64,000 nucleotides of DNA from Fidelibacterota bacterium (GCA_021734065.1 JAIPJQ010000003.1:1497-65496), one strand, 5' to 3'; positions 6,844 through 53,498 are shown, numbered from the stretch's first letter. Numbers and translations are program-made. Notes: a model not told the origin generated them from the sequence alone.

Positions 6844-6874
6844 CCTGACGGATCAAGGTAAGGACTGGAATCCC

Positions 6875-9259
6875 ATGACGGTCAATTTGAACCCAAACCA
6901 CCTGCTTTCGGAGCGGAAACGTTTGATTCGAATGATTGGCAACGGGCTGAGCTGGAAACGAATCAGCCTCATTCTGGCCGTTGTTTTTCTGATCTGGTTG
7001 ATTTGGCCCATGTCCTACCCATTTCCCGATAATACCTCACAACTAATCCGCTCCTCAGACGGTGATTTATTGCGCGTCACGCTGGCTACTGACGACCAAT
7101 ACAGGTTCCCGCCATCGAATCAACCTTTACCGGAAAAATACCGGCAGGCTGTCCTGTTGTGGGAGGATCATCGCTTTTATCGGCACCCGGGTGTTGATCC
7201 AATTGCACTGATTCGGGCGGCTTCATCGAATATTAAAAATGGACATTTGGTTAGTGGGGGCAGCACCATCACTATGCAGGTTGCCCGCCTGGCATGGCCA
7301 AAACCGCGTACATACTTCAACAAACTTCGCGAGTGCTTTACTGCGGTAAAGCTGACACGCCATTTTTCCAAAGCTGAAATTCTGAAGATGTACGCTGATC
7401 ATGTCCCCATGGGTGGAAATTTTGTGGGGGTCAACACGGCATCCTGGTATTATCTGGGTAAATCAGCCCAGCAGCTTACCTGGGCTGAAGCGGCACTTTT
7501 CGCGGTACTCCCCAATTCACCATCGATGATGAATCTGGAAAAGGATCGACGACTCCTGCAAAAAAAGCGCAACCGGCTCATCAATCGTCTATTTCAAAAT
7601 CATGTGATCAATCAAGCGACGTCCAGACTTGCCATGGAGGAACCACTGCCCGGTCATTCCGGAAAGTTTCCTTTTATTGCGCCGCATTTTACACAAAAGG
7701 TATTGACCCGGGCTCCCCATAAACCCGACATCATCACTACATTGAATAGTCACCTTCAGAACACGGTAGAGCAGCTGGCTGACAATTATCATACACAATT
7801 ATCAGTTAAGGGTATTTCCAATCTGGCAGTATTGGTTGCCGAAACCAGAACAGGAAAAGTTCGGGCTTATATCGGGTCAGCTAACTGGTTTGATTCAACA
7901 GCGAGCGGACAGGTAGACGGTATCCAGGCAGCTCGCTCAACCGGCAGCCTGTTAAAACCGATTCTGGCTGCTATGGCTTTGGACAATGGGCCCTTCACCA
8001 TGGCTTCACTGCTGCAGGATATACCCACAGCGTATGGTACATTCATCCCTAAAAATGCTGATCTAACATATCGCGGTATGGTGAGTCTGGAAGAGATGCT
8101 GCTCCATTCCCTGAATATTCCGGCGGTCAGGCTCCTAAAAACAATCGGCATTATCCCGCTATATGATCTACTTCACGATGCTGGTTTACAGGATTTATTC
8201 CGGAGTCCGGATGGCTATGGATTATCACTGATTTTGGGAGGAGCAGAAGCCAGGCTTGCGGAGTTGGTGCAGCTCTATTTAATGCTGGGTAATGACGGCC
8301 GACCACAATCGTTGGTTTACCTTGATGGCGTTGATTCAGAGGCAGAAACTCAGCCCGGCAATTTGGTGAGTGCAGGAGCCAGCTGGCTCACGCTTGAGAC
8401 GCTGCAAAATGTCACCCGGCCGGATGTAGATTTTTACTGGCAAAATTTTTCTCAACAAATCCCCGTCGCATGGAAAACCGGAACCAGTTTTGGGAACAAG
8501 GATGGTTGGGCTATCGGGCTGAATGCGCAGTGGACTGTCGGTGTTTGGGTTGGCAATTTTTCGGGTGAAGGGAATGTGGAGATCGGTGGCGCAAAAGCTG
8601 CTGCACCTTTGCTGTTCGATATTATTAACCAAATTACGGATCCGAATGCCACGCTTTGGTTTGAGGAGCCGGATCTGGATTTGAAATCAATCGAGATTTG
8701 TTCAGAAAGTGGCTACCCGGCCGGTCCAAATTGCTCCCAAAAACGACTGATTAGTGTACCACTGTATACAACAAAAAGCGGGATTTGCCCTTTCCATCGG
8801 CAGTTTATTCTGGACAAGGCAACTGGAAAGGCTGTCTGTTCACAGTGCTGGAACGGTCTTCAGACCGAACGGGTGACAGCATTTGTTCTACCCCCGGCAG
8901 CACAACGGATCTATCAGCGCAATGGTCGCACCGTTGATTATATACCGCAACATTTGGCCGCGTGTCCCACGAGCAGCAATCAAGACCGGTTGGAAATTGT
9001 CTATCCGGTCAATGGCATCAGTATTCTGGTCCCCCGGAATTTTGATGGCAATTATGAGCAAGTCGTATTTCAGGCCAATTCTCAGGTCAAGGATACACGC
9101 CTGTTTTGGTTGCTGGATAATTGCCTGATTGGTGAAACTGAGCATCATCACGAATTGGCTGTAGATCTGAAAGCAGGAGAACATACGCTGGTCATCATGG
9201 ATGATGAAGGTTTTACCCGTCGGGTCCATTTCAGGGCATTCAGGAATACACCGAGCTAA
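6875..9259 (+). CDS. pbpC: penicillin-binding protein 1C (transglycosylase/transpeptidase)
   Basis: 794 aa. N-terminal TM anchor. GT51 motifs EDHRFYRHPGVD and GGSTITMQ. Transpeptidase SxxK (STGSLLKP) and KTG (WKTGTS) boxes. Sits downstream of the A2M gene. Confidence 0.88.
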   Translation: MTVNLNPNHLLSERKRLIRMIGNGLSWKRISLILAVVFLIWLIWPMSYPFPDNTSQLIRSSDGDLLRVTLATDDQYRFPPSNQPLPEKYRQAVLLWEDHRFYRHPGVDPIALIRAASSNIKNGHLVSGGSTITMQVARLAWPKPRTYFNKLRECFTAVKLTRHFSKAEILKMYADHVPMGGNFVGVNTASWYYLGKSAQQLTWAEAALFAVLPNSPSMMNLEKDRRLLQKKRNRLINRLFQNHVINQATSRLAMEEPLPGHSGKFPFIAPHFTQKVLTRAPHKPDIITTLNSHLQNTVEQLADNYHTQLSVKGISNLAVLVAETRTGKVRAYIGSANWFDSTASGQVDGIQAARSTGSLLKPILAAMALDNGPFTMASLLQDIPTAYGTFIPKNADLTYRGMVSLEEMLLHSLNIPAVRLLKTIGIIPLYDLLHDAGLQDLFRSPDGYGLSLILGGAEARLAELVQLYLMLGNDGRPQSLVYLDGVDSEAETQPGNLVSAGASWLTLETLQNVTRPDVDFYWQNFSQQIPVAWKTGTSFGNKDGWAIGLNAQWTVGVWVGNFSGEGNVEIGGAKAAAPLLFDIINQITDPNATLWFEEPDLDLKSIEICSESGYPAGPNCSQKRLISVPLYTTKSGICPFHRQFILDKATGKAVCSQCWNGLQTERVTAFVLPPAAQRIYQRNGRTVDYIPQHLAACPTSSNQDRLEIVYPVNGISILVPRNFDGNYEQVVFQANSQVKDTRLFWLLDNCLIGETEHHHELAVDLKAGEHTLVIMDDEGFTRRVHFRAFRNTPS

Positions 9260-10231: not shown

Positions 10232-10744
10232 TCAATCACCTGGCCGAAGGATTCTCCCCGCGATATCTTCAATCACCCGGGGTTGTTCATAATATCCCTG
10301 CTGGATTTTTTCACGTATGGATTGGATTTCCTCATCGCTGAGCTGGTGCGGATTCTCACGCTGCTTTTGTAATTCTTCGAAACGCGCCGTCAGGATTTCC
10401 CTGATTCCCGGATCACCCATGATTCCCTCTGCGATCTTCTCGTGACTCTCGGGCGTATCGTATTTACCGGAGGTTATCGCTTTATTTATTCGCGCTATTT
10501 CAGCCGAATCTGACTCTTTCAGCACCTGAAGGTAGCGTCCCACCTCTTCCATTTGCTGTAACAGATTTCGGCCGGTATTGGAGATCTTCACACGGGCGGC
10601 GTTTCCGGATTCGGGAGGATCCGAATTTGTGGTCTCTTGCTTACCGACTTTCGATTGATTACCGGTACGATTGTTCGTGGCTTGGTTTTCTCGCAGGCGA
10701 CGAAATTCCGGTGGAAGGTTGTTTATGTCTTTAATTGGTCCCAT
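10232..10744 (-). CDS. flgM: anti-sigma-28 factor FlgM-like protein with duplicated C-terminal motif
   Basis: 170 aa. Polar, disordered-looking N-terminus. Two copies of the FlgM signature (EIARINKAITSGKYDTPESHEKIAEGI and EIQSIREKIQQGYYEQPRVIEDIAGRI). Last gene of the late flagellar block. Confidence 0.6.
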   Translation of the reverse strand: MGPIKDINNLPPEFRRLRENQATNNRTGNQSKVGKQETTNSDPPESGNAARVKISNTGRNLLQQMEEVGRYLQVLKESDSAEIARINKAITSGKYDTPESHEKIAEGIMGDPGIREILTARFEELQKQRENPHQLSDEEIQSIREKIQQGYYEQPRVIEDIAGRILRPGD

Positions 10745-10764: not shown

Positions 10765-11244
10765 CTACTTCTGCTGAATATCTATAAGATGCGCTCGTTC
10801 CTTATCCATTGTCAATGTCATTGTCGACGGATCCCTACTACGATGATCGGCAAGGTGTGTCAAATCTTTAGCGATCCGCATTTTCTCCGATCGCAGGCGA
10901 TCATACAATTTCTCATTGGCCAGATTGAGTTGTTCCGCAAGCGTGCTGATCTTTTTTTGTGTCGACCTGTGGGATTGGAACCCACTTGGCAGCGCCGCTC
11001 TCAGCTCCTCCAGGGCTTTAATCCCATCCATCTCCGTCTCACGGTCAGAGAGTAATTCCCCGATTTCAGTAATCGTCAGACTCTCCACCCTTTCGAGTTT
11101 TTCCTCGGTCATTTTCAGTAGCCGCTGAAATGATCGATGTTCTTCCAGTAAGATCGCCTCGGCGGATTCAAAGGCTTCATTCTCATTGGAAGGCTTTGAC
11201 GTTGGTCTATCCTTTTCGTGAGCCATTTTTTCTCGATTCAGCAT
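10765..11244 (-). CDS. hypothetical coiled-coil protein of the late flagellar operon (FliT/FlgN-like chaperone candidate)
   Basis: 159-aa helical, charged ORF between flaG and the flgM-like gene with 20-24 nt gaps. The functional call rests on position only. Confidence 0.4.
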   Translation of the reverse strand: MLNREKMAHEKDRPTSKPSNENEAFESAEAILLEEHRSFQRLLKMTEEKLERVESLTITEIGELLSDRETEMDGIKALEELRAALPSGFQSHRSTQKKISTLAEQLNLANEKLYDRLRSEKMRIAKDLTHLADHRSRDPSTMTLTMDKERAHLIDIQQK

Positions 11245-13841: not shown

Positions 13842-14666
13842 TTACTGGAAGAGCGAGAGGACCGACTGAGGCGCCGTATTCGCTTGAGCGAATGACGACA
13901 GAGCGGTCTGCTGGAGGATCTGTAATTTCATTACCTCCATTTGCTCTTCAGCAAAGTCCGCATCTTCAATTGAACTTCTCACCGCTTCGGTGTTGGTGGC
14001 TGCCAATTGTAAAGTTGTCTCCTTGGAAGACAGACGAGACTGGTAGTTACCAACATCCTGCATTGAGGCCGCCAAAGTATCAATGGCAGAGCTCAGTGAG
14101 GAGATCGCTGCAGAAGCACTGGCCTGGGTGCTGATCGCCACTGAGTTAATGGACAGCGCTGCAGAATCGGAATCACCGAGTGTGACACTCAGGGTGTCAT
14201 TAGCGCCTTCACCAACCTGGAAATCATTACTGGAAACGCTACCATCGATCAGGGCTTTTCCATTGAACGTCGTGTTGGTGACGATGTCATCAACTTCTTC
14301 GATCAGAGCAGTGACCTGATCATTCAGAGCTGTGCGCTGATCGTCTGACAGGGTATAATCCGCTGCTTGGGTGGCTTTTTCTTTTACTGTTTGCAAAATG
14401 TCCATGATGCTCTGATAGCCACCCTCGGCCACATTCAGTACATTCTTGGCATTGGAAACATTCTGCAGAGCCACGTTCAGACCACGGCTGCGAGACTCCA
14501 GACCGCGTGCCAATTGATATCCAGCTGGATCATCAGCAGCAGAATTGATCTTCTTGCCCGTGGACAGACGCATCTGATGCACACCAATTTTGTTGTTGAT
14601 GTCCTGCATCGAGCTTAACGATTGCAGTGCCCGTACGTTTGTGAAAATCCTTGTTAGATCACCCAT
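13842..14666 (-). CDS. fliC: flagellin (short, about 274 aa, lacking large D2/D3 insertion)
   Basis: Conserved N-terminus (RIFTNVRALQSL..., LSTGKKINSAADDPAG) and C-terminus (MEVMKLQILQQTALSSFAQANTAPQSVLSLFQ). Start reassigned to ATG 14666, which is preceded by GGAGG. The ORF-track start at 14741 adds 25 non-flagellin residues. Confidence 0.92.
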   Translation of the reverse strand: MGDLTRIFTNVRALQSLSSMQDINNKIGVHQMRLSTGKKINSAADDPAGYQLARGLESRSRGLNVALQNVSNAKNVLNVAEGGYQSIMDILQTVKEKATQAADYTLSDDQRTALNDQVTALIEEVDDIVTNTTFNGKALIDGSVSSNDFQVGEGANDTLSVTLGDSDSAALSINSVAISTQASASAAISSLSSAIDTLAASMQDVGNYQSRLSSKETTLQLAATNTEAVRSSIEDADFAEEQMEVMKLQILQQTALSSFAQANTAPQSVLSLFQ

Positions 14667-14834: not shown

Positions 14835-14861
14835 TTATCGGCTGGCTTCAAAAAAACTTTA
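14835..14861 (-). promoter_or_regulatory. sigma-28 (FliA) promoter of the flagellin gene
   Basis: The minus strand reads TAAA-N15-GCCGATAA, an exact match to the sigma-28 consensus, about 170 nt upstream of the flagellin ATG. Confidence 0.8.
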
Positions 14862-15163: not shown

Positions 15164-15190
15164 TAAAGATTTGCAAACTCCGGCCGATAA
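15164..15190 (+). promoter_or_regulatory. sigma-28 (FliA) promoter of the HTH/REC-HD-GYP/motAB operon
   Basis: The plus strand reads TAAA-N15-GCCGATAA (exact consensus), 33 nt upstream of ATG 15223 and divergent from the flagellin promoter. Confidence 0.75.
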
Positions 15191-15222
15191 TGGATAATGG
15201 GAATGAAAAATCGAGACACACC

Positions 15223-15456
15223 ATGAATGAAAATGAAGAAATACTGGATTTAGATACTGCCTGTGAACTCCTGAGAATTCGCCATCGCACCATGTATACC
15301 CTGCTGAAAGAGGGCAAGGTACCCGGGGTCAAGATTGGTGGCCAGTGGCGCTTCTCTAAAAAAGCCTTGCTGGATATGTTCAACACAAACAATCCCATAA
15401 GCCCTGTATCCGGTGAAGAACAACAAGAAGATACCGGAACGCCACCTCATGAATAA
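15223..15456 (+). CDS. small excisionase/MerR-type helix-turn-helix DNA-binding protein
   Basis: About 77 aa from ATG 15223. Motif LDLDTACELLRIRHRTMYTLLKEGKVPGVKIGGQWRFSKKAL is typical of the HTH_17/excisionase family. The longer ORF-track start (15073) lies upstream of the sigma-28 promoter. The stop overlaps the next gene's ATG. Confidence 0.65.
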   Translation: MNENEEILDLDTACELLRIRHRTMYTLLKEGKVPGVKIGGQWRFSKKALLDMFNTNNPISPVSGEEQQEDTGTPPHE

Positions 15457-16825
15457 TTCTTTACAGCAAAAGAACTCCGGAATCGTACGCTATAAAATAC
15501 TGGTGGTGGATGACGATCCGGCTACCCGTGAATTTCTGAAATTTGTTTTCAAAGAGGCTCAATACATTCTGAAAGAAGCAGTCAACGGCAAAGAAGGCAT
15601 CCAGGTGGCCCGTGAATTTCGTCCCGACCTTATTCTCAGCGATGTGGTCATGCCCGAAATGGATGGATTGGCGTTTTGTCAGGCTGTCCGGAACGACGAA
15701 AAGCTCCAGATGGTGATATTTTTACTCATGTCCTCTGTTCACCTGGAGATCAGTGACCGGGTTGATGGATTACGCGGCGGAGCCGATGAATACCTGTTGA
15801 AACCACTGGATGAAAATCAGATCAAAGCTCAGGTTCAAGCTTTTTTGCGTATAAAAATTCTTCAGGACCAATTGGTTTCCAAAAATGACCGACTGGAGGA
15901 AATGAACACGGCTCTGGAAGAGAATAAGCGTAAGGTTGAGGAGACAAACAAAGCCCTGGAGCACGAAAAAGAGCGGCTCACCTACTCCCTGAAGGAAATC
16001 TCGAAGCTGGCCGAGGAGCTGGAAAAATCACACAAAAACCAATTACAACTTAATATCACTTTAAAAGAGAGTTTTGATGATCTGGTGGCGCTTCTGGCGA
16101 CTATTGTAGAATTACGCAATCCCTACCAACCCGGTCACTCCAAGGAGGTGGCGCAGATTTCCATGTATGTTGGCGAACGCCTGGAACTTGACACCTCTCA
16201 GTTAAAAAACCTGCGGATGACGGCACTGTTACACGAGATTGGCATGATCGGTCTACCGGATGACATCATTAAACTAACACCGGATCAAATGTCGCCTGAA
16301 CAACTGAAAATATACCTTCAACATCCTGTTGTGGGTGAATCTCTGTTACTTAGCCTCAAAGGCTGCCAGCAGATGGCCAAAATTATCCGGCATCTGCACG
16401 AAAATCTGGATGGGTCCGGATTCCCCGATAAGTTGATCGGCGATGAAATTCCTCTGGAATCCAGGATTATTAAAGCCGCCGCTGATTTTAGTCGCGCACT
16501 TCAGAATGTCAGCGACCACGGCCAGATTTACCGGGTTTACCACGCGATGAAAAATGAAAGTGATATCCGCTACGATGCGCGGGTATTCGCCATTCTGAAA
16601 GATTATGTGGATACCATCGCCGACCGCAGGAAAAACCGAAAAATCGAGACCATCAGTCTGGCTCATTTACAGCCGGGAATGGTGCTGGCGGCAGACGTTT
16701 TCACCAATTCAGGTATTAAGTTAATACCGGAAGGTATTGTACTCACGGAAGCCTCCATCAAGGGTATTCTCAACTACAGTTACAACGATCCCCTGCCACC
16801 CGGGATCAAGATCATCGTGCAATAA
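15449..16825 (+). CDS. response regulator: REC + coiled coil + degenerate HD-GYP domain
   Basis: REC motifs VVDDD, LILSDVVMPEMDG, LLKP. HD-GYP-like core GHSKEV...LLHEIGM...HLHENLDGSGFP...AADFSRAL, with HD changed to HE and GYP to GFP. C-terminal LQPGMVLAADVFTNSGIKLIPEGIVLT module. Confidence 0.8.
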   Translation: MNNSLQQKNSGIVRYKILVVDDDPATREFLKFVFKEAQYILKEAVNGKEGIQVAREFRPDLILSDVVMPEMDGLAFCQAVRNDEKLQMVIFLLMSSVHLEISDRVDGLRGGADEYLLKPLDENQIKAQVQAFLRIKILQDQLVSKNDRLEEMNTALEENKRKVEETNKALEHEKERLTYSLKEISKLAEELEKSHKNQLQLNITLKESFDDLVALLATIVELRNPYQPGHSKEVAQISMYVGERLELDTSQLKNLRMTALLHEIGMIGLPDDIIKLTPDQMSPEQLKIYLQHPVVGESLLLSLKGCQQMAKIIRHLHENLDGSGFPDKLIGDEIPLESRIIKAAADFSRALQNVSDHGQIYRVYHAMKNESDIRYDARVFAILKDYVDTIADRRKNRKIETISLAHLQPGMVLAADVFTNSGIKLIPEGIVLTEASIKGILNYSYNDPLPPGIKIIVQ

Positions 16826-16894
16826 AATGAGATAAATAAGAGAGATAACATGCTGATTAAACAAACAAGATTGAAAAAATAGGCCGGAGTTCCA

Positions 16895-17707
16895 GTGGAC
16901 ATTGCCACCATATTAGGAATCATTTCAGGCGTGGGGCTTATCCTGATTTCAATCACCATGAACAGCGGCTTGGAGTTGTTTGTAAATATTCCCTCCATCA
17001 TGATCGTCGCCGGTGGCACCCTGGCGGCAACCCTCATTGCTTTTCCTCTCCATGAAGTCCTGATGGTCCTGTCGCTGCTCAGACGCATTTTCTTTCATAA
17101 ACGCTCCGATGCCCGGGCATTGATAACTCAACTGGTGGAGTTGGGTGTCCAGGCGCGGAAAGGTGGCGTGCTCTCGGTTGAGAATCAGCTCGCACAAATT
17201 AACAATGAATATCTGCGCAAGGGGCTCCAGCTGGTAGTGGACGGCGTCAGCGAATCCGGCATTATCAACATGCTTAAAATCGAAGAGGTCAATACGCGCA
17301 AACGACACCAGACCGGTTGGGAAATATTTGCTGAAATGGGTAAATACTCACCGGCATTCGGTCTGGTGGGCACCCTGATCGGGTTGATCCAGATGTTGGC
17401 GAATTTGGACGAACCGTCAACCATCGGACCCCGGATGGCCGTGGCGATGATCACCACCTTTTATGGCAGTATCATGGCCAATCTGATCTTCATTCCCATG
17501 TCCGTCAAACTCAAACGCCGTAGCCAGGAGGAAGCCATTCTCATGAGTCTGGTTATGGAGGGTATCAAATCAATCCGGTCGGGTGAAAATCCCAAACTCA
17601 TGGAGGACAAACTCAACAAATTCCTCTCGAATGAGCAGCAGAAAAAAATCGCAAAAAGTCTGAAAAAGGGCCGGGGGGCCAAGAAAAAGCCTGCGGACAA
17701 AACCTAA
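16895..17707 (+). CDS. motA: flagellar stator protein MotA (set 1)
   Basis: 270 aa with a GTG start preceded by GGAG. Four TM segments and the MotA/TolQ/ExbB signature (PAFGLVGTLIGLIQML, TTFYGSIMANLIFIP). Confidence 0.88.
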   Translation: MDIATILGIISGVGLILISITMNSGLELFVNIPSIMIVAGGTLAATLIAFPLHEVLMVLSLLRRIFFHKRSDARALITQLVELGVQARKGGVLSVENQLAQINNEYLRKGLQLVVDGVSESGIINMLKIEEVNTRKRHQTGWEIFAEMGKYSPAFGLVGTLIGLIQMLANLDEPSTIGPRMAVAMITTFYGSIMANLIFIPMSVKLKRRSQEEAILMSLVMEGIKSIRSGENPKLMEDKLNKFLSNEQQKKIAKSLKKGRGAKKKPADKT

Positions 17708-17725
17708 CCGGGAAGACCCAAACTG

Positions 17726-18586
17726 ATGCCAGATTCGGATCAAAATAACGACGATACTCTGTTTGAGGAAGTTATCGAGGACGAGGAGCAGGATGGATCA
17801 GCATCCTGGTTAATGACGTTCGGCGATATGATGACGCTGTTGCTGGCGTTTTTCGTCCTGCTGTTTGCCATGAGTGAGACCCAGATGGAAGATTTCGCTC
17901 AATTGATGGAATCGCTCAAAAAAGCAATTGGTAAGCAGGAGGTCCCTGAGGCCGGTACCCGTGTTGGCTTGAAAATGATGGAGATTAAGGCAGAAGAACA
18001 GCCGAAAGCGGTGGATGAATTGGGCGCTCTGGTTAAAAAGGAGATGGAGGACTTCGAGAGTCAGACCGAGGAGTTTATTCTTGCGAATACGCTGGCAGGC
18101 CAGGTGAAGGTTGAGGAGGACGGCCGGGGGGCTGTTATCACGATCTCGGATCTAATTCTTTTCCCATCAGGTGAGGCCGATTTTCTGACTGATGCCGAGG
18201 ACGTATTATTAAAAATCAAAGAATTGATCAATCAATTTAAATATCATGTAAAGGTTGAAGGACATACCGACAATGTCCCAATTAACACCCCCGAGTTTCC
18301 CAGCAATTGGGAACTATCAGCAAATCGGGCGAGTAAGATCGTGCGTTTTTTTATCGAACAAGGAGTTGATCCTGATCGGCTATCTGCTGAAGGTTTTGCT
18401 GAATATCGACCCATTGAAGATAACTCAACGATTGAGGGGCGCGCAAAAAACCGGCGGGTAGAGATTGTCTATCAGCGAGCGGATGTCACCCGGGCAATTC
18501 AGGATTCCCTGAACCAAGTTGATAACACCAACCCGATTGAAAAACTTCCAACCTCCACATCTCGGGACAGTACCCGCGCACCTTAA
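17726..18586 (+). CDS. motB: flagellar stator protein MotB (set 1), OmpA-like C-terminus
   Basis: 286 aa. SWLMTFGDMMTLLLAFFVLLF carries the conserved proton-channel Asp. C-terminal OmpA/peptidoglycan-binding motif (GHTDNVPI...NWELSANRA...NRRVEI). Confidence 0.88.
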   Translation: MPDSDQNNDDTLFEEVIEDEEQDGSASWLMTFGDMMTLLLAFFVLLFAMSETQMEDFAQLMESLKKAIGKQEVPEAGTRVGLKMMEIKAEEQPKAVDELGALVKKEMEDFESQTEEFILANTLAGQVKVEEDGRGAVITISDLILFPSGEADFLTDAEDVLLKIKELINQFKYHVKVEGHTDNVPINTPEFPSNWELSANRASKIVRFFIEQGVDPDRLSAEGFAEYRPIEDNSTIEGRAKNRRVEIVYQRADVTRAIQDSLNQVDNTNPIEKLPTSTSRDSTRAP

Positions 18587-18738: not shown

Positions 18739-19413
18739 CTATTCGGAATCGTCCAGGCTAATCATTTCCGGACCGCGGGTCGTATACTTCTCCGAGCGGA
18801 TCTGGATCATGTTTTCCAGTTTTTGAGTCACGGTTCTGATACGAGAGACATTATCCAGGATTTTCCGTAAACTACCTAAGACATTTTCCGGTAAATCTTT
18901 ATGTTTAAACAAGATCGTCTCGGCGTACATCTCGATAGCCTGAAGTGGATTATTAATTTCATGATTTGAAGTAATGGCCATCTGATTCACGAGTTTGATC
19001 GCCTGGAGCCTGTCATTTTCACGCTGCAATCTTAAAATGCGCAACCCGGTGCGCACCCGCGCTAAAAGCTCTTTGATATTGCACGGTTTGATGATGTAAT
19101 CGTCAGAACCCTTCTCGAATCCCAGGACAATATCTTCGATGTCATCCTTTGCTGTGAGCAGGATGAAGTAAGTCCGCTTCAATTCCGGATTTTGTTTGAT
19201 TGCCAGACACAGTTCTTCACCCGTCATTTCAGGCATCATCCAGTCTGAAATGACCAAATCCGGCTTGAATTCCTTCGCCCGCTCGTACGCTTCGCACCCA
19301 TCAGTGGTTACGGCAAATTCCACATTCTCATCCTTTAAAAACTTTTGCAGAAGCTTCGTGTACATGGCGTCATCCTCGGCGATGAGCACCTTCAAGGTTT
19401 CCGGGTGATTCAT
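18739..19413 (-). CDS. response-regulator receiver fused to a HisKA/DHp domain, no ATPase domain
   Basis: About 224 aa from ATG 19413. REC (LIAEDD, LVISDWMMPEMTG, LLTAKDD, IIKP), then the H-box ITSNHEINNPLQAIEMY, and the protein ends about 70 aa later. No N/G1/G2 ATP-binding boxes. Confidence 0.75.
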   Translation of the reverse strand: MNHPETLKVLIAEDDAMYTKLLQKFLKDENVEFAVTTDGCEAYERAKEFKPDLVISDWMMPEMTGEELCLAIKQNPELKRTYFILLTAKDDIEDIVLGFEKGSDDYIIKPCNIKELLARVRTGLRILRLQRENDRLQAIKLVNQMAITSNHEINNPLQAIEMYAETILFKHKDLPENVLGSLRKILDNVSRIRTVTQKLENMIQIRSEKYTTRGPEMISLDDSE

Positions 19414-19629: not shown

Positions 19630-19656
19630 TTATCGGTCAAAAATCAAGCTCCTTTA
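19630..19656 (-). promoter_or_regulatory. sigma-28-type promoter upstream of the REC-DHp gene
   Basis: The minus strand reads TAAA-N15-ACCGATAA (one mismatch to consensus). It overlaps the stop codon of the GT2-TPR gene, about 215 nt upstream of ATG 19413. Confidence 0.6.
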
Positions 19657-21089
19657 GAGCTTTCTGCAGACGAGGGGGATTCACGGTTTAATTCCTGTAA
19701 AAGCCGATGTGCTTTTTCAACCTCTCCGACTTTGCTGTACAAACCCACTAACCGTTTGAGCGCCAGTCGGTTTCCCGGATCGGCAATGAACATTTGTTCA
19801 TATAATTGAATGGCACGTGGAAAATCCTGCTGTTTGACCTTTAGGATGGCCAACAAGTTCAGATATTTAATCTCGTCCGGAGCTTCGGTTAGCAACGCTT
19901 CCAGCTCGGTTTCTGCGGTTGAATAATCGTTGGTCTTCAAACTGATATCCACCAGGGATTCTCTCGCCGAAATATGATGTATCCCCAAATTCCTTGCCGC
20001 TTCCAGTGCTGCCCTTGCTCGTGCCGGTTCCTCCATTTTTAGTAGAAGCATTCCCTTTGTATATAAAATCTGTCCTGAGTCGATAGAAACATCAACGGAA
20101 ATGTTCTGGTTCAAGGATGATCGGGCTTCGCGCAGAGTCAGCAATTTATCCAACCATCCCAAAGCACCGGACAATTCGCCGGCTTGTTCGGCCAGGCGAT
20201 ACCTGAGGTAAATTGCCGAAGTCTGATGAGGAACCAGAGCGAGAGAAGCATCGGTCATTTTTCTGGCCCGGTCGGGCTCACCCAATCGCAGGTACGTTTC
20301 TGCGGTCACATTGAATAATGATGCCTTCATCCCCGGTGTAAAGTTTTCACGCGACAGTGCCACTTTCAGATGTTCCAGAGCTTCTGCGGGTTGATCCAGC
20401 AGATTGTATTGCTCACCAAGCTTATAGTGAGCATAAGCATTGCCCGGATCCTCCGTAACCAATTGTTGCAGCAATTCAAGGTTACGCCGGGCTTTGCGCG
20501 CTTTGCGATCCCCGGTAAAACCATAGCCTAAATGGAGTAGAATGATTTTTGATTCAAACTCCACACCTTTGAGTTTAATAGCGCTGGGAACCAACTGTTC
20601 GTGGATCCGGCCACTGAATTGGAGTCCAATATTATTTGAAAACAGACGGTGCGCCTTTGATAACGAAAAGGTGCACCCGTCTTCTTTAATATTGCGAATA
20701 TGAACATTATACAACGTGGGTTTTTTAACCGGTTTTAAAAGTTTTTTCAATTGGGGAATGGATTCCGGGAGTAATCGTTCATCAGCATCCAGCCATAAAA
20801 TCCAATCACTTTTGGCATATTGGATCGATGCATTGCGGGCTTTGGCAAAATCGTCTTCCCACGCGGATTCATGTACCACCGCACCGAACGATCTGGCCAA
20901 CTCAATCGTACCATCGGTTGAACCCGTATCCAGGATCAGCATTTCATCCACCACATCTCTGACGCTTGCCAGACATTCCGCCAGCATTTCTTCTTCATTC
21001 CGGACGATCATGCACAGTGATAATGTTTGCCGGACCGGGAGAATCGGCTTGCTGGTGAAGCTCTTTTTCCTGGTCATGGGCACCGGCAA
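19644..21089 (-). CDS. family-2 glycosyltransferase fused to TPR repeats
   Basis: 481 aa. N-terminal GT2 fold (LSLCMIVRNEEEMLAECL...ILDTGSTDGT...WLDADE), then about 280 aa of TPR-like repeats. Confidence 0.8.
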   Translation of the reverse strand: MPVPMTRKKSFTSKPILPVRQTLSLCMIVRNEEEMLAECLASVRDVVDEMLILDTGSTDGTIELARSFGAVVHESAWEDDFAKARNASIQYAKSDWILWLDADERLLPESIPQLKKLLKPVKKPTLYNVHIRNIKEDGCTFSLSKAHRLFSNNIGLQFSGRIHEQLVPSAIKLKGVEFESKIILLHLGYGFTGDRKARKARRNLELLQQLVTEDPGNAYAHYKLGEQYNLLDQPAEALEHLKVALSRENFTPGMKASLFNVTAETYLRLGEPDRARKMTDASLALVPHQTSAIYLRYRLAEQAGELSGALGWLDKLLTLREARSSLNQNISVDVSIDSGQILYTKGMLLLKMEEPARARAALEAARNLGIHHISARESLVDISLKTNDYSTAETELEALLTEAPDEIKYLNLLAILKVKQQDFPRAIQLYEQMFIADPGNRLALKRLVGLYSKVGEVEKAHRLLQELNRESPSSAESSKGA

Positions 21090-21158: not shown

Positions 21159-22142
21159 TCATCCGAGGGATTCGGTGATCTTTTTAAATTCATCAAGTCG
21201 TTTACCCCGACCCAATCGTATCTCCAACAGCTCTCGATTGACGTCATAATACTTATCCATCTGCTGATCCAGTTTGATGGTCAGAATACCGGTTCGCAGC
21301 AGGCGTTGAATTTCCGATTCAAAATCAGCCGGAGAATGCTTCAGGTCACGTTGAAGGCGATCGTTGAAATAGGTTAAAGCCAGATCATTGGCGGACCCCT
21401 GCTCAGACAACAGGCTTGCAATGAACTTGAGCAACTTTAATTCTTGACGTGATTGTTCTTCGAATTCAGGCGAGATACTTTTCCCGATACGACTGAAATA
21501 CTGCTCCCGGCAATATTGGGCGAGACTTTGGAAAGTTACGATATCGTTCACAATAAACTGACGACCTGCCTCATAATTAATTCCACTTTTCGCAATGCGG
21601 CTCAAGGTCAATTTATTCATCACCTTCTCCACAAAAGTCTGGGAGACATTGGTTAAAAAGGCAATGGTCTCGGCCGTTTCCTTCCAGGTAATCTGAAACT
21701 GGTTGAATTTGTCCGGGTCACGATGGGAAACCAGGTAGTAGAGCAGATAAACAACCTGTTTGCCTTGATCAGCCTTTGAGAGTGTGTTTTGGGTTGAATC
21801 CGCCTGACGTAAACGATCCACCAAAATTTCATAAAATGCCTGCATCCAGGAGGGGACCTCTTCCATCCGCTGTTCAAATAATATCTTGTTGATCTCGATA
21901 CATTGTGTTGTTGTCCTGGCGGTAATCGTTGCAGATCGTTGGCGCCCGTCCACCATGGACATCTCCCCAAAAATAGCGCCCGCTGTGAGTGTCGCTAATT
22001 TTACCGGTCGATTATCCACAACTTTCGTGACTTCCACCTCCCCACTCTGGAGGATGAACATGGATTTTCCATCATCACCTTCCCCACAAATTACATCGTC
22101 GGGCTGGTAGGTACGAAGGGCATTTTTTTCCACAAAAGACAT
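21159..22142 (-). CDS. cyclic-nucleotide-binding domain protein, Crp/Fnr-like with extra C-terminal region
   Basis: 327 aa. cNMP-binding motif GAIFGEMSMVDGRQRSATITA. A probable wHTH follows (ETIAFLTNVSQTFVEKVMNKLTLSRIA), then about 110 aa of unknown sequence. Confidence 0.7.
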   Translation of the reverse strand: MSFVEKNALRTYQPDDVICGEGDDGKSMFILQSGEVEVTKVVDNRPVKLATLTAGAIFGEMSMVDGRQRSATITARTTTQCIEINKILFEQRMEEVPSWMQAFYEILVDRLRQADSTQNTLSKADQGKQVVYLLYYLVSHRDPDKFNQFQITWKETAETIAFLTNVSQTFVEKVMNKLTLSRIAKSGINYEAGRQFIVNDIVTFQSLAQYCREQYFSRIGKSISPEFEEQSRQELKLLKFIASLLSEQGSANDLALTYFNDRLQRDLKHSPADFESEIQRLLRTGILTIKLDQQMDKYYDVNRELLEIRLGRGKRLDEFKKITESLG

Positions 22143-22147
22143 CTATT

Positions 22148-25100
22148 CTATGCTTTCTGTTGAGCCAAAACAGCCTGTTTCAATTCACGGGCTGATGGAT
22201 TTTCCGGATCCAGCGCAAGCACCTTCTCACTCCAGGATACCGCTTCATCCTTATTCCCCGCCTCTTCATGGAGCTGGGCCATCCGCAGTAAGCTGGGTAT
22301 ATCATCCGGGTTCCGATCCAGGATTGAGATATAGGTCTGAACACCACCAGTGTAATCTTCCTGTAGTAGCTGTATCTCTGCCAGATTACGCCGGGCATCG
22401 ATAAATGTCGGTTCCAGGTCGATGGCGTGGCTGATCAGAACATGAGCCTTTTCCAGATCCCCGGTTTCCGCTACAATAATACCACTTTGGTTATACGCCG
22501 CCGCATCGGCTGGATTGAACTTGAGAATTTTGTGCAGCAGACGTAGCGCTTCTTCAGAATGATCCAGGTTACGGGCGCAAATCGCCAGACCGAATAACGC
22601 CTCTTCGTCGAGTGGGTTTTCCCGGTAAATCTCCCTGAATAACGCATCCGCCTCGGGGAAATGTCCCTCGGCCAGTAACGCGGTCGCCCGCTTGATTTGA
22701 TAAGGATGCATCTCCTGCAAACCATTCCGAATTTCCAGCAATTCTTCGTAATCCACATCCGGCCATTTCGCGTGAAACAATTTCAGGCGTTCTTTGAGAT
22801 TTTGCTGGTAATCAATCCGGTTGGCTTTAAAGGTTTGGCTGCCAAAATGGTGCAACAGAACGGATTCATCAACCATGAGGGCCAAACCCTTTTCCCGAAT
22901 CCGTAAACTCAGATCATCATCTTCAAAATTACCCACACCAAACGAGGTGTCAAATCCACCGATCTCATCATAAAGTGATTTTTTCATCAATACCGCAAAA
23001 CCAGCCAGTCGGCGACGGGGTGTGAGCCGATTTTGATTTTGTTGATGGAGCGTTGAGGCGAATTGGAAAAATTCCTCGTCCGTGTCATAGGGTACTTCAG
23101 TCAACGCCTGACGACCACTGATATAGTTGGTGATCGGTCCCACAGCCCCGATATTTTCATCCCTTTCCAGCGATTCAACCAATGACCCAAGCCAACCTTC
23201 CGGAACGAGCACATCATTATTGAGCAGTATGATGTATTTTCCGCTGGCTATGGCAACACCTTGGTTATTGCCTTCAGCGAAGCCCATATTTTTCCTGTTT
23301 CTGATAAGCTTGTAATGCGGGTTCTTTTTAATCAGGGTATTCAGATATTTAACAGTGCCGTCAGTGGAGGCATTGTCCACAAAAACGATCTCAAACGGAA
23401 TGCTTGTATTTTTTTCAATCGATTTCATGCACTTTTTCGTGTATTCCAGAGCATTCCAGGTGAGCATGATGATTGAGACGAGGGGGTGGGCATCCGCATC
23501 CTTCATTTGGTCATGGTCATGATCAAACTTGGCTGTCATCAACTCCCGGATACGACCCGTACTCCAATTCCGCTCAACCAGGGCTCTCCCATTTTCAGAT
23601 AAGATTGTCCAGAGTGGTTGATCATGATACAGTTCAACCACAGATGCTACAAAATCTTCCGGTTTATCAGCCACCAGTGCTGTTTTACGGTGCTCCAAAC
23701 TCATACCTTCGGCACCGATCGAAGTAGTTACCACCGGGATCATCCAGGAGAGGGCTTCACCGATTTTACCCTTCATGCCGGCCCCATAGCGCAGTGGTGA
23801 AATAGAGATACGAGCCTTTTGAAGGTACGGTGTGAGATCTTCCACATAACCGGTCACGATTATCTGATCATTCGCCAGACTTTTGATCGATTCCGGAGGA
23901 TTGTTTCCCACGATGTACCACTTGATATCCGGAAGTTTTACCAGGATCGCCGGCCACATATTCTTATGAAAATGCAGAACAGCATCCACATTCGGGGTAT
24001 GGGAAAAATTCCCGACGAACAACAGATCGCTGGTTTGATCAAAGAGCCTTTCGACTGTCGGCATTTCATGGATATTGGGTATGATGTCGATGGGAATATT
24101 ACCGGTTTTGGGTGCAATGGATCGCCTGTCATTCTCGGTTACCACCCACACCTCATCCGCCTGATTATAAACGGCCAATTCCTGTTTTTGCTTTTGTTTG
24201 GCGATCTGTTTTAATTCTTGATCTTGTTTTAATTCCGCTTCCCGAATCTCACGAATAAAATGAATGTCAACCGTATCAACGATAATCTTAGTTCTGGATG
24301 TGATCTTGCGTAGACGTGGAATGAAATACTGGGCAATGTACCAGAAGGAAAGAATGGCGTAATCAAACTGGCGCGGTTTGAAAATCAGATCATAATTGAT
24401 GGGTGGAAATTCACGATTCAATTTGAATCCGGCCATTTTTAAGGCCTCGCCGTCATTCCCCCAGACCTCCACACCAATATTTTGTAGATCCCGAATGTAC
24501 CGGACATCGGGCGATAAAAGGCACGCCATATAGGTGACATGATAACCCATCTCACGCAAAATTTTGATATAACTAAACAATCGGAGGGAACCAGAAGCTC
24601 GATCATAGGCCGGCAGAAATTGATCAGCGATAAAGATATTACCCTTGATTCCACGCTGGGAAGCCCTTACTACATTCGATGGTCCCGGAGCAGATTGTTC
24701 TGACAATTCGGCTCGCCACTTGTCTAAAAATTTAGCAGCGTTGACTTTCTGGTAGCGTTTGAAACCAGTATTCAGATCGGTACCGGCCGTTTGCCCTTCA
24801 TAATGGACAACAACACTTGCCGGCTGGTAATAAACCTTAAATCCATTTTTTCGTACGGCAAAACAGAGGTCGGTATCTTCATAGTAAGCCGGAGAATAGC
24901 GTTTATCAAAACCACCGATAGTGTCCCACAACGATTTTCGAATCATTAGTGAAGCACCCGAGCAGTAATCCACCTCCCGGACAAAATTGAAAGCCGGGTG
25001 ACCCGGATTGTTACCACGGCCAAAATTCCAGCCACTCCCGTCCGAAAAAATGATCCCGCCGGCTTCCTGCAGCTTGCCATCGGGATACACGAGTTTTGAG

Positions 25101-28100
25101 CCAACTGCACCGCAATCAGGCCTTCTTTCAGCTAGTTGGACGAGCGATGTTAACCATCCGGGTTGAACCTCTGTATCGTTATTAAGGAAAAGTAAATATT
25201 CGCCCTCAGCTTCTGTTGCACCATGGTTACAGGCCTTAACAAACCCATGATTTTCATCATTAGAAACGACTTTATAATTCGAGATTTCGGACTGTTTTTG
25301 TAAAAAGTCGGGGGTATTGTCTGTGGACGCATTATCTATGATAATAACTTCATATTGGGAATATCTTGTATTCTCTTTAATCGCTTTAAGACACTTTTTT
25401 GTTAGCTCCAATTTATTGAAAACCGGAATAATGATAGACACTAAAGCTGTACGATCAACTTTTTTCTCAACGCTCCCCAAATCGCCGGAATGATCCAATT
25501 TACGATCGACAACTTTTTTTACGATCTTTTCCAAATCCACGTCAATCTCCAAGAATTTTTGGATACCTTTAAGAAGATCCGATCGGTTTTCTGAGAGAAG
25601 CGCTTTATAACTCACATTAAAGGATTCAAAAGGTTGGATATATTTGTTCATTCTTGCAATATACTCATCGTAGAGATTTTCGGCTTTGGCTCGCGTAAAT
25701 TTATTCCGCTTCATCAATGAACGAACAACGGCTTCTTTGTCCCTGTCCATTACGATTATTTTTAAGTTTTGCGGCAGAACTTTCCGCCATACAGGAAAAG
25801 TGAGACAGAGCCGAGGATCCTTCAGCGCTATCAAAGAATTATTTTGATAGCATCCGGTCACACGCTCCAACAACGGATCAACCTTGATAGATGAAATATT
25901 ATCTGGAGATGGCGGCTCATCCCAAGCACCGCCAGCGATTGATAATATCAGATCATTTGTTCCCACCACACTCTGTCGCTCAAAAAATCCATTAGGGTTG
26001 TCTGGTCGGGGACCCATAATATCATCCGATTCACCAATATAAAAACCGGCCTTATTGAGAACATTCATCATCATTGAGGTACCACTTCGATGCATTCCCA
26101 TAACCGTTACAAATTTCGTAATCGAATCAGACTGCATTTTTTTCTCATAGATATGGATTGTGCCGGCTTCATTTTCTCTGATCTGTTTTTGACTTTTAAT
26201 CTTAACGAAGTGATGTTGTCGAATAAATTGGTCTAAGTTTTCATCGACAAAATAATTCTCCGGGGTACGAATAACGAAATTTTTACGAGCCAGCACCAAT
26301 AAATTATTTAAAACTTTAGGTCGGGTTGAAACGGGCAGATGGTGATAAAGTCCTAAGAAAAGAACCGTATCATAAGCCGTTTTTAAATGACCTTGAGAGC
26401 TACTTAAAAAACGTTCCCAAGAAGAAAGATCGGCTTGATAAAGCTTAGCATTCGTTACATTATTTTTTCTCAGCAGTTCATTACCAAATTTCACTCGGAC
26501 GGCATCATACTCAAATCCATCAATCCATTTTGCCTGTCCTTCTGTTGCTAAAAATTTTGTAATCAACCCCTCTGCACACCCTGTATCAAGAATCGTGTGA
26601 TCCTTAACCTGCTCCTTTATTTGGTTTAAGCCTGAAATACGACGACTAAATGGTCTTTTGCCAAACAGTCCCAATTTGGGGTCTCTAAAATAGTGTGTCC
26701 ATTGTGGTCGCTCTAATAATTGGACGAGTATTTTACTGTACTTTCCCCAGGTATAGTTTTGCATATCACTAAATGCAGCTTGTCCAATCCTCACGCGTAA
26801 ATTATTATTATTCATCAATAATTTAATGCTTTTACCAATCTCATTTGGTGTGATGTTCTTTAAACAAAGGGAATTGGTATCGTTGGCAAAATCAATTGTA
26901 CCCGCCTGGGTCAAAATAACAGGTTTACCTACAGCCATGGCTTGTGCAGCGGTATTACACCAGCCAGCATGGGTTTCTGTTGTGACAACAATATCCATAG
27001 AACGATAGAAATTTGTCAGTTCGTCGTCGTAAAGTTTTCCCAAAAATTTAAGTCTGCCTTGATTTACAAAATGGTCTGCATCTCTATGTTGGATTCCATC
27101 TGATCCATATAGGCTCAATTTGACATTGTCTGGCAACTGATATAATGACTGAATTAATGGTATCGGGTTTTTCAATGCATATCCACCAATGTTCCATTCA
27201 CCCGCTTTTACTGACTTACCATCCACCAATACATTAGGTTTTGGGTTTGAGTGAATGGCACCGGGCAGGATATAAAAACTATCTGCCTGCAAATTGACAT
27301 AACTGTCCCAATGTGAATTATTGAAAATAACTACGTGTGGTTTAAAAACCTGATTAACTGCGTAGGCGCGTTTCTCAACACTTTTATCATTCAAGACATG
27401 CTGAATCCGGGTACCGAATCGATCATCAAGCAATAGTTCAATTTTTTTAACCTCCTTACCTTCTACACCCGCCCCAGGAATCATAACGGCATCCCACTTT
27501 GAAGTACCCAAATCAGATAAAGTCATAATGCGTTTTTCGAGATAGGGCCATTGTGTATTTGTCTTATTGGAGAGGGATAAAAATTCTACCTCATGCCCGA
27601 CTTTTTTCAAGGCTTTAGCAACCTCAATAAATCTGGCAATCCCACCATTAAGTGTAAATTCAAACCAGGCCACCAAAATTTTTAGAGTTTTTGTGTGTAT
27701 ATCTGAATTTAGTTCGGTAAATATTTTATCCAAATATTTGATATCCGAGGCTTTCAGTTCTGTACGATAATTACCAATTTTACCGTTTCTAACTTTAGGT
27801 GCTCCATTGCGGAGCCGTAACCAGGGATGTGGGAATTTACCACTTTGCTCAGTTTTTCGCATTTTTTCGATGGTTGAATTAGCAATTGCAGTGCGCAGTT
27901 CATCATCACTAACTGAAAAATTATAAAACTTGAGAAGTTTTCTTACTCCACCTTCAATATCGTGTTTACATTCTTCATAACTGAGGGTTAACACATTAAG
28001 TTCACTACTTAAGTGATGCCACATATCGCGAAAGCGTTTCAATGATTTGGCACCAAAATAATCATCTCGAATAAATTCTGAAATTGAACCTCTGTAGTTG

Positions 28101-31677: not shown

Positions 31678-32256
31678 TTATCCTTTTCTGTCCAACAAAC
31701 AGGTATCGGTGGAATTTTTATCGGTTATGCCACGCGTATCGTACAGGGTCATGTCTGATCCCTGTTGCCGATATAAAAGGTTGATCATCCCTCGGGCATA
31801 ATCCATGGATGCCCGCAATAAATATTCATTCTGCTGGTTTGTTTCCGTGATTTGGTGTGCCACGGTTTCTGTTTGTTTGATCAGTTTGCTCAGTGCCGGT
31901 GAAAGATCCCGGGGAACCAGAGCTTCCAGATATCTCAACCGGGGTTCAGACATTTCCCGGCCATGGCATGTGGCAATTTTTTTCATCAGGCCGGCGCGCT
32001 CTTTCACCCTGTCCCCCAGTTGGTTTGTCAGCAGTCCCTCTTCGCCTGTGATCCGATCCAATTCATCCACATTCCCCGCAATGATGACCTGCTGCTTTTT
32101 CAGCACTATATCTTGCAGACGATTGCACCACATCAATTCCACCGAGAGCATTGATATCAGTGTTTGGAACATCTCATGGGTTGTGAGCGTGCTGCCCTGG
32201 TCATTGATAAATTCATCCACGGGCTTCAACAATTGATTCGTTTTTGCCTGCCCCAT
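31678..32256 (-). CDS. flgN: FlgN-family export chaperone
   Basis: 192-aa helical protein (LISMLSVELMWCNRLQDIVLKKQQVIIAGNVDELDRIT) directly upstream of flgK. TAATG overlap with the preceding gene. Confidence 0.65.
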   Translation of the reverse strand: MGQAKTNQLLKPVDEFINDQGSTLTTHEMFQTLISMLSVELMWCNRLQDIVLKKQQVIIAGNVDELDRITGEEGLLTNQLGDRVKERAGLMKKIATCHGREMSEPRLRYLEALVPRDLSPALSKLIKQTETVAHQITETNQQNEYLLRASMDYARGMINLLYRQQGSDMTLYDTRGITDKNSTDTCLLDRKG

Positions 32257-32675
32257 TATCGTGTGTCCTTGAGCAGGTCCATGCGCAACGAATGTAGGGT
32301 GTTGAAATCCCAGCTTTTCAATTCAGTAATGGCGTTTATCGGTCCGTGATCTTTTTCAGCCAGGGCACGGTAAAACATCTCTGACAAGCCCGTGGGATTA
32401 CCCTTCGCCAAAGCATCCCCCATCGTACTGCTGAAAAGCATGGAGGAAAGGGTATTCTGTTGGCCGGAAAGGCTGTTCTTAGGTACTGTTTTTTCCATCG
32501 CCTTAACGATCTGGGACAGAAAGGATGCTTCCAACTGCTCACTGGCTTGCCGGAGCTGAATATCCCGCACCTTTAGATTTTCAACGTCAAGGTTCTTGTT
32601 CTTGTATTGCTCCACCGTATTTTGACTGGAAGCTGAATGTGACTGAAGTTGGATTTGAGATGATATTGGATCCAT
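32256..32675 (-). CDS. flgJ: rod-binding protein (FlgJ N-terminal domain only, no muramidase)
   Basis: 139 aa. QLEASFLSQIVKAMEKT and MLFSSTMGDALAKGNPTGLSEMFYRAL match the rod-binding domain. Too short to carry a glucosaminidase domain. Confidence 0.7.
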   Translation of the reverse strand: MDPISSQIQLQSHSASSQNTVEQYKNKNLDVENLKVRDIQLRQASEQLEASFLSQIVKAMEKTVPKNSLSGQQNTLSSMLFSSTMGDALAKGNPTGLSEMFYRALAEKDHGPINAITELKSWDFNTLHSLRMDLLKDTR

Positions 32676-53461: not shown

Positions 53462-53498
53462 GGACTGACCGGTTTCGACATGATGGAAGTTTTCAAGA

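Follow-up and report, generated by a model that had tools for sequence, protein, structure and literature searches.

How does a bacterium that carries two flagellar stators settle which of them drives the flagellum? Stator choice in multi-stator bacteria is partly understood, the known answers being cyclic di-GMP (c-di-GMP) effectors of the PilZ type and ion or load conditions. The question is raised by a stretch of 64,000 nt from a Fidelibacterota bacterium (GCA_021734065.1 JAIPJQ010000003.1:1497-65496; hereafter the window, meaning this whole stretch), in which one of two motA-motB pairs, set 1, lies downstream of genes for a small helix-turn-helix (HTH) protein and for a response regulator that joins a REC domain to an HD-GYP-like domain. 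Analysis of this cassette and of related loci, all of them carried by uncultured organisms, revealed that regulators of this kind are encoded beside stator genes in several phyla, and this pairing points to an undescribed control of which stator drives the flagellum. The reading we prefer, and to which we give an even chance of being right, is that set 1 (MotA1B1) is an auxiliary flagellar stator, and that the cassette also encodes a dedicated regulator, which is under two-component control and acts post-translationally.

The cassette and its stator genes

The cassette consists of four co-oriented genes on the plus strand, in the order HTH protein (15223-15456, 77 residues), regulator (15449-16825, 458 residues), MotA1 (16895-17707, 270 residues) and MotB1 (17726-18586, 286 residues). 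A public assembly of the same DNA, annotated by an independent gene caller, contains the identical 77-, 458-, 270- and 286-residue products. Between the cassette genes there are no terminator-like sites beyond chance level, and the GC content of the cassette is that of its flanks. A reading of the window made from sequence alone (the sequence-only reading) had described these four linked genes, a regulator start codon overlapping the HTH stop and a second MotAB pair in the core flagellar operon at 52748-54263. Pfam and NCBIfam agree with the gene identities, the regulator ATG does overlap the HTH stop codon, by 8 nt, and all the elements of the cassette lie within one base of the coordinates given there. 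The core pair, recognised by both NCBIfam and Pfam, consists of MotA2 (53499-54263, minus strand) and MotB2 (52748-53461, minus strand) within a FlgE-MotA-MotB-FliL-FliM operon.

By its sequence, set 1 is a flagellar stator and a paralogue of the core MotAB, with 46% identity between MotA1 and MotA2 and 34% between MotB1 and MotB2. MotA1 starts at a GTG codon, 69 nt after the regulator gene and with a GGAG 8 nt before it, and is a PomA/MotP-like stator A subunit in NCBIfam, where it scores 248.6 bits against PomA, 244.8 against MotP, 206.6 against MotA and 21 against TolQ, reaching no equivalog cutoff. Its PDB matches are all flagellar stators, MotA (6ysf) and PomA (8brd) among them. The segment ARKGGVLSVEN aligns with ARKGGFLALEE of PomA and keeps the equivalents of PomA R88 and E96, which contact FliG. 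MotB1 follows after an 18-nt gap, with MotB_plug and OmpA domains in Pfam and MotD/MotS/MotB matches in NCBIfam; it has a plug, an OmpA-like domain for peptidoglycan binding and a transmembrane Asp (FGDMMT), which aligns with that of MotB in 6ysf. The alternative that set 1 is a TolQR/ExbBD-type system, raised in the sequence-only reading, is excluded by the low TolQ score, by the stator-only PDB matches and by the conserved FliG-contact and channel residues.

Regulator and stator genes are paired in several phyla

Is the position of the regulator gene beside set 1 a local accident? Related loci were gathered through exact-protein look-ups and a scan of one genome per species with a 12-sequence alignment, and all open reading frames (ORFs) were scored by phmmer. 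This yielded 36 non-redundant loci of the regulator clade, the window included, of which two end at the regulator gene and 34 are informative. MotA and/or MotB was directly adjacent to the regulator, on the same strand, in 34 of 34; its neighbour was never another late flagellar gene, and the stop and start codons of regulator and stator often overlap or nearly abut. The coupling that had been described at this single place is therefore no local accident but is conserved across several phyla, the taxon labels of the loci being Fidelibacterota/Neomarinimicrobiota, Desulfobacterales, Ignavibacteriota/Bacteroidota, Acidobacteriota and Syntrophorhabdaceae.

The loci fall into three groups. Group A, from metagenome-assembled genomes (MAGs) labelled Neomarinimicrobiota, Fidelibacterota or Fibrobacterota-Chlorobiota-Bacteroidota (FCB), has regulator identities of 41-74% and the order HTH, regulator, MotA, MotB; these cassettes are located beside a flagellin cluster or within unrelated flanks. 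Group B comprises Desulfobacterales/Thermodesulfobacteriota and some Fidelibacterota (35-39% identity), with the order regulator, MotA, MotB and without the HTH gene. Group C, from MAGs labelled Ignavibacteriota, Bacteroidota, Acidobacteriota, 'delta' or Syntrophorhabdaceae (26-34% identity), has the order MotA, MotB, regulator, and its MotB stop codon overlaps the regulator start. MotA of group C scores above the cutoff of TIGR03818 (E. coli-type), whereas MotA of groups A and B is PomA/MotP-like. The pairing thus holds through two gene orders, two stator classes and widely differing flanks. Our main evidence for a regulator of the auxiliary stator is this adjacency, which is specific to stators of two classes and has withstood rearrangement.

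Which of the two stators is concerned? Wherever two MotAB pairs are visible, which is the case in the window and in nine other loci (L029, L031-L035, L041, L091 and L092), the regulator stands beside the second. Several group C loci have a MotAB pair without a regulator just upstream, for example in the order FlgK-FlgL-MotAB-FliW-CsrA-MotA'B'-regulator. FliW-CsrA, the flagellin translation checkpoint, lies between the core and the regulator-linked stator pairs in L091 (1132-6194) and L092 (1206-6191). A neighbour-joining (distance) tree, rooted at its midpoint, unites the stator-linked proteins in one clade, apart from NosR proteins that are not stator-linked.

A sigma-28 promoter precedes the cassette

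When would the cassette be expressed? An exact match to the sigma-28 (FliA) consensus TAAA-N15-GCCGATAA lies at 15164-15190 on the plus strand (TAAAGATTTGCAAACTCCGGCCGATAA), 33 nt 5' of the HTH start codon. The window holds two exact matches in its 64 kb, compared with 0.02 expected from shuffled sequence, and both are in the 480-bp divergent region between the cassette and a flagellin gene (13842-14666, minus strand; Flagellin_N/C domains), the other being the promoter of that gene (14835-14861, minus strand). A FliA/WhiG sigma-28 factor is encoded after FlhA-FlhF-FlhG (40709-41551, minus strand; TIGR02479, 203.3 bits against a cutoff of 189.6), and a FlgM-like gene lies at 10232-10744 on the minus strand (Pfam PF04316, 34.7 bits; below the NCBIfam FlgM cutoff). 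These features suggest that the cassette is FliA-dependent and transcribed as a single operon.

The exact promoter, which the sequence-only reading had placed correctly, also keeps its position in orthologous loci: sites with no or one mismatch stand about 26 nt 5' of the HTH start in six of them (L001, L004, L008, L013, L015 and L017). In three others (L002, L009 and L011) the site is degenerate, and the cassette there follows flagellin-FliS-FliD-FlaG on the same strand. No sigma-28 consensus was found upstream of the group B and group C cassettes. A conserved FliA promoter appears, then, to be limited to Fidelibacterota-type loci only.

The regulator has a degenerate HD-GYP site

What kind of protein is encoded beside the stator? 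The regulator combines a REC domain (PF00072, E = 1.3e-24) with an HD_5 domain (PF13487, E = 4.7e-33). Its AlphaFold model (predicted local distance difference test, pLDDT, 84.9) comprises the REC domain, a helix of about 100 residues (122-223), a domain of HD-GYP fold and a small C-terminal beta/alpha domain. The best Foldseek matches are PA4781 (4r8z), DvhD and PmGH, with target-normalised TM-scores (TMt) of 0.76-0.79 for two isolated HD-GYP-domain entries and 0.46 for PmGH, a 361-residue chain. In an alignment of 22 family sequences (29-83% identity), the phospho-acceptor D65 of the REC domain is nearly invariant, as are D22, D23, K118 and P119.

The HD-GYP domain of the window protein departs from the catalytic pattern at each of its motifs. 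The HD dyad is replaced by HE (LHEIGM), the HDxGK lysine being Met; a single His remains at the HHE position, which reads LHE (RHLHEN); and GYP has become GFP (DGSGFP). The Glu of LHEIG is invariant in the 22-sequence alignment and near-universal in the clade, where L012/P0016 retain LHD. The residues found at the double-His position across the clade are IN, IY, LF, LL, QL or QM, and the first His is missing in group C. The middle residue of GYP is F, Y, D, E, V, Q, S, M or H within an invariant DGxGxP, and in the alignment DGxGxP, R314/H315, E318 and IP334-335 are invariant or nearly so. Likewise, the best 120 database homologues split cleanly into proteins of about 390-460 residues with LHEIG, xxE and GxP and proteins with the canonical LHDIG, HHE and GYP. 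The 'c-di-GMP-type' domain of the sequence-only reading has the fold of that type, to which HD_5 and Foldseek both attest, but its active site is degenerate. We consider that the regulator is probably not a normal c-di-GMP phosphodiesterase; hydrolysis of c-di-GMP by this protein, and even binding, cannot be assumed.

The C-terminal domain of about 60 residues (regulator residues 392-458; 16622-16822, plus strand) has the pattern L..GMxLAxDxxTxxGxKLxP. It has no Pfam match even at E = 10, only weak matches among PDB sequences (a small domain of RNA polymerase beta' and of Lys/Arg/Orn decarboxylases), and no Foldseek match at E < 0.001 when a domain-only model (pLDDT 84.9) is used; on these searches we reject a C-terminal output domain of the PilZ-like or any other known kind, and none of the cassette proteins has a PilZ match. 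In a profile search, the domain turned up in about 2055 clusters at 50% identity. Ten were checked against Pfam, and the domain occurs at either end of their HD_5 proteins in up to three copies; we take it as a generic HD-GYP accessory, not a stator-specific one, because nearly all the clusters checked carry HD_5.

Several points weigh against a non-catalytic regulator that acts on the stator. The HE dyad is conserved and not random; it may form a modified metal site, whose catalysis would be residual or altered, and the window copy retains H230, H262, H292, H315 and H317. The missing HDxGK lysine, which contacts phosphate in DvhD, weakens the role of nucleotide receptor for this copy, and there are no GGDEF, EAL or PilZ genes in the 64-kb window. 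Finally, the adjacency might reflect co-expression only, and any contact between the regulator and stator proteins is putative.

Could the regulator then be an active, phosphorylation-gated phosphodiesterase of c-di-GMP or another cyclic dinucleotide, one that keeps the messenger low during swimming and stands beside the stator through co-regulation? E. coli PdeH offers a FliA-dependent precedent. The HD_5 domain with its HD-GYP fold, the sigma-28 promoter and the database name of the relatives, 'RpfG family c-di-GMP phosphodiesterase', all agree with this explanation, as do the retained His ligands of the window copy, since Glu can in principle coordinate metal. We nevertheless judge it unlikely. 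Nearly all the clade has HE for HD, and most of it has no HH pair; group C lacks the first His and the window copy the Lys; and DvhD, with comparable losses, is inactive. Moreover, the neighbour at all 34 informative loci is MotAB and no other late flagellar gene.

Phosphorelay genes flank the pair

Where would the signal for the REC domain come from? Convergent with motB1 lies a gene for a protein with a REC domain and a HisKA (dimerisation and histidine phosphotransfer, DHp) domain, without HATPase_c (18739-19413, minus strand; Pfam; H-box HEINN). Such a convergent REC-DHp partner is also present in L001, L002 and L009-L011, and this protein is a candidate phosphotransferase or phosphatase for the regulator. 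A weaker sigma-28-like site (19631-19656, minus strand; TAAAGGAGCTTGATTTTTGACCGATA) is located upstream of the REC-DHp gene, within the 3' end of a GT2-TPR gene; it is the third match in the window to the relaxed pattern TAAA-N14-16-CCGATA, for which 0.27 would be expected, and the REC-DHp gene may also be FliA-dependent. Elsewhere in the flagellar cluster, a GAF-DHp protein without an ATPase domain (37046-37873, minus strand) is encoded beside a complete PAS kinase (37906-39150). Both DHp proteins that lack an ATPase domain may serve the flagellar cluster in phosphotransfer or as phosphatases. Among the relatives, L004 and L008 are flanked by genes for a PAS kinase, a histidine phosphotransfer (Hpt) protein and a REC protein, and L033 by genes for a REC-Hpt protein and a PAS hybrid kinase. 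The module had been described as self-contained, which holds in part only, as it is usually flanked by phosphorelay genes; these presumably feed the REC domain of the regulator.

The same neighbourhood could be read in the reverse direction, with the auxiliary stator as a load or surface sensor that reports motor engagement, through the HD-GYP-like protein, to the c-di-GMP or two-component network. Stator contacts with c-di-GMP enzymes are established in other bacteria, and MotC-SadC in Pseudomonas aeruginosa and stator-dependent surface sensing in Caulobacter are analogues. MotAB-dependent surface sensing is mentioned in PMC13432727. The conserved adjacency and the flanking phosphorelay genes fit such a sensor well enough. 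The intact phospho-acceptor site of the REC domain, however, marks the protein as the final receiver of a phosphorelay signal, and the degenerate catalytic site gives no obvious enzymatic output, which makes this direction of flow decidedly improbable.

The HTH protein is an addition in one lineage

What is the part of the HTH protein? It is of the HTH_17/excisionase type, a MerR-like winged helix with an acidic tail (PF12728, E = 1e-12; TIGR01764, 37.1 bits against a cutoff of 28.8). Its core (…RTMYxLLKxGxxPxxKIGGQWRF…) is strongly conserved in 14 group A loci and absent from groups B and C. The overlap with the regulator gene is not conserved, the two genes being separated by gaps of 18-53 nt in L001, L002 and L008. 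Bundling of the HTH gene with the stator, as the sequence-only reading had it, is thus correct for Fidelibacterota-type loci and fails elsewhere; the gene looks like an add-on to these loci only, outside the widespread regulator-stator core. Recent acquisition of the 'excisionase' by horizontal transfer or from a prophage was considered and rejected: the cassette does not differ from its surroundings in GC content, the window ORFs scanned include no integrase, and the position of the gene is fixed in orthologous cassettes.

Three copies of TGCA(A/G)A (15141-46, 15151-56 and 15172-77, plus strand), spaced by 10 and 21 nt, flank or lie within the -35 element and spacer of the cassette promoter; the background is 0.09 per 60 nt. 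These repeats occur at the promoters of most group A loci (the window, L001, L008, L011, L012, L013 and L015). In six group A promoters a pair with 20-21-nt spacing holds the same position, one copy 5' of the -35 element and the other in the spacer, L011 having a 10-nt pair; a third copy lies 10 nt farther upstream in the window and in L001. The flagellin sigma-28 promoters have no TGCA(A/G)A copies. The repeats are a candidate operator for the HTH protein, which may autoregulate the operon.

One might go further and take the HTH and REC/HD-GYP proteins together as a transcriptional switch for stator or flagellar genes, with no direct action on the motor. The excisionase-like protein TorI, which binds a response regulator, is a precedent; in the window the two genes overlap, the HTH protein is highly conserved, and the TGCA repeats stand at the promoter. 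That the regulator-stator pairing persists in groups B and C without any HTH gene, and that the overlap gives way to gaps in other loci, makes us consider this switch very unlikely. Still less credible, to the point of being barely worth retaining, is the notion that the cassette has no special function and is a paralogous stator held by descent beside unrelated signalling genes: many loci do come from related lineages, among which conservation is partly inherited, but the pairing is found at 26-33% regulator identity, in several phyla, in both gene orders, with both stator classes and amid unrelated flanks.

A model for the control of the auxiliary stator

How might the auxiliary stator be controlled? 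In the proposed model, FliA would transcribe the HTH, regulator, motA1 and motB1 genes late in flagellar assembly, alongside flagellin. A dedicated phosphorelay would then set the phosphorylation of the regulator at D65; the candidates are, in the window, the neighbouring REC-DHp protein and the PAS and GAF kinases of the flagellar cluster and, in relatives, a PAS kinase with an Hpt and a REC protein, or a hybrid kinase with a REC-Hpt protein. The long and probably dimeric helical stalk would pass the signal to the degenerate HD-GYP-fold domain, which would serve as an effector or receptor and be non-catalytic or at most weakly catalytic. In this way the regulator would control the engagement of MotA1B1 with the rotor, or its torque, instead of or alongside the core MotA2B2, and would most likely do so by contacting MotA1 at its cytoplasmic part. 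The HTH protein of the Fidelibacterota lineage would probably autoregulate the operon through the TGCA(A/G)A repeats that overlap the promoter. The phosphorylation partners, the sign of the effect, be it activation or inhibition, and any nucleotide ligand are likewise points that we infer.

A broader proposal is put forward more tentatively, as possible though doubtful. The REC/HE-GxP proteins might be widespread and unrecognised stator selectors: their degenerate HD-GYP domain would bind the cognate auxiliary MotA on its cytoplasmic face and engage or disengage that stator according to phosphorylation and independently of c-di-GMP hydrolysis. NosR, in the sister clade, might act on the motor just as directly and so raise swimming in Burkholderia.

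Other features of the window

Between the stator cassette with its flagellin cluster and FliW, the window encodes a 2072-residue fusion of sulfotransferase, GT1, methyltransferase, GT2 and TPR domains (22148-28366, minus strand), which may be a flagellin glycosylation enzyme. GC content falls to 0.38-0.43 at 24-28 kb. Beside this gene are those of a GT2-TPR protein (19644-21089) and a cNMP-binding protein (21159-22142), in an arrangement also present in L001. At 1288-9259 on the plus strand, an alpha-2-macroglobulin of 1851 residues is followed by a PBP1C-type penicillin-binding protein, an A2M-PbpC pair unrelated to motility. Four ORFs within the flagellar clusters (307, 104, 159 and 139 residues; 39511-40696, 10765-11244 and 32256-32675, all minus strand) have no Pfam match, the 104-residue ORF having been scanned by NCBIfam only. 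No riboswitch or other RNA element was found in the 64-kb window.

Comparison with known systems

How does the cassette compare with systems already described? Dual stators, stator-binding c-di-GMP effectors (YcgR, FlgZ and MotI) and degenerate HD-GYP regulators (NosR and DvhD) are each known separately. The two paralogous stator sets of the window, one in the core operon and one elsewhere, resemble those of P. aeruginosa (MotAB/MotCD), Shewanella (PomAB/MotAB) and B. subtilis (MotAB/MotPS); the literature searched did not reveal, for any of these systems, a response regulator that is dedicated to the auxiliary stator and encoded with it. A full-text literature search also gave no description of REC-HD-GYP/motAB operons or of a response-regulator clade encoded with auxiliary stators.

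PilZ-type c-di-GMP brakes and clutches bind MotA or MotC, and FlgZ acts selectively on one of two stators. The proposed logic, a cytoplasmic signalling protein acting on the stator, is that of YcgR, FlgZ and MotI/DgrA; the regulator described here differs in lacking a PilZ domain, in receiving its input by REC phosphorylation and in being encoded in one operon with the stator. YcgR is described in PMC12943098 and PMC13432727. RpfG, PA4781 and PA4108 share the REC plus HD-GYP architecture, and PA4781 is the best Foldseek match, but these proteins keep HD, HHE and GYP, hydrolyse c-di-GMP and have no conserved linkage to stators.

DvhD of Desulfovibrio vulgaris (PDB 9rbz/9rc0), one of the best structural matches, shares the HD-GYP fold with lost metal ligands and, ahead of it, a dimeric stalk helix; it has a degenerate site (HD to SQ, HH to MN), binds c-di-GMP without cleaving it and signals through its stalk helices (PMC13090378). 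Degenerate HD-GYP domains can therefore be non-catalytic signalling modules. DvhD itself is membrane-bound, contains a PAS domain and controls an adhesin protease; its substitutions are SQ/MN rather than HE/xx, and it has neither a REC domain nor a link to a stator.

The closest characterised relative of the regulator is NosR of Burkholderia, even though the family cutoff is not reached: the window protein scores 262.4 bits against the NosR model (NF053512), below the cutoff of 400, while the true members L039 and L040 score about 540. The similarity is full-length, covering model positions 1-415 of 422 and including the small C-terminal domain. NosR is the response regulator of the NosP-NosK nitric-oxide pathway of Burkholderia pseudomallei and B. 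thailandensis; in B. pseudomallei its HD-GYP domain is degenerate (HG-GTP) and NosK phosphorylates it (PMC12570481). The ΔnosK and ΔnosP mutants, which are predicted to raise NosR~P, swim further (PMC12570481). A phosphorylatable REC domain, a degenerate HD-GYP domain and a pathway that affects swimming are thus features shared with the window protein, as we read it. The window protein differs in belonging to a separate clade, in lying beside MotAB and not beside nosP/nosK, in its much longer linker helix and in the missing Lys of HDxGK. No FIST (nosP) match was found among the window ORFs scanned, the neighbours of the regulator being the HTH protein, MotA, MotB and the REC-DHp protein. The betaproteobacterial NosR-family proteins of L036-L040, L043, L045 and L047 have LHEIGK and Q[LFM]E, as in the stator-linked clade, and are not adjacent to motAB.

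If the proposal is right, a response regulator encoded with an auxiliary stator would add to these systems a direct two-component input to stator choice, in a pairing whose range extends from Fidelibacterota to Desulfobacterales, Ignavibacteriota and Acidobacteriota. A large clade of degenerate HD-GYP regulators, now labelled 'c-di-GMP phosphodiesterase', would thereby receive a definite function, and what is likely a systematic mis-annotation would be corrected. The swimming phenotype of the Burkholderia NosPKR pathway, so far unexplained, would gain a hypothesis that can be tested.

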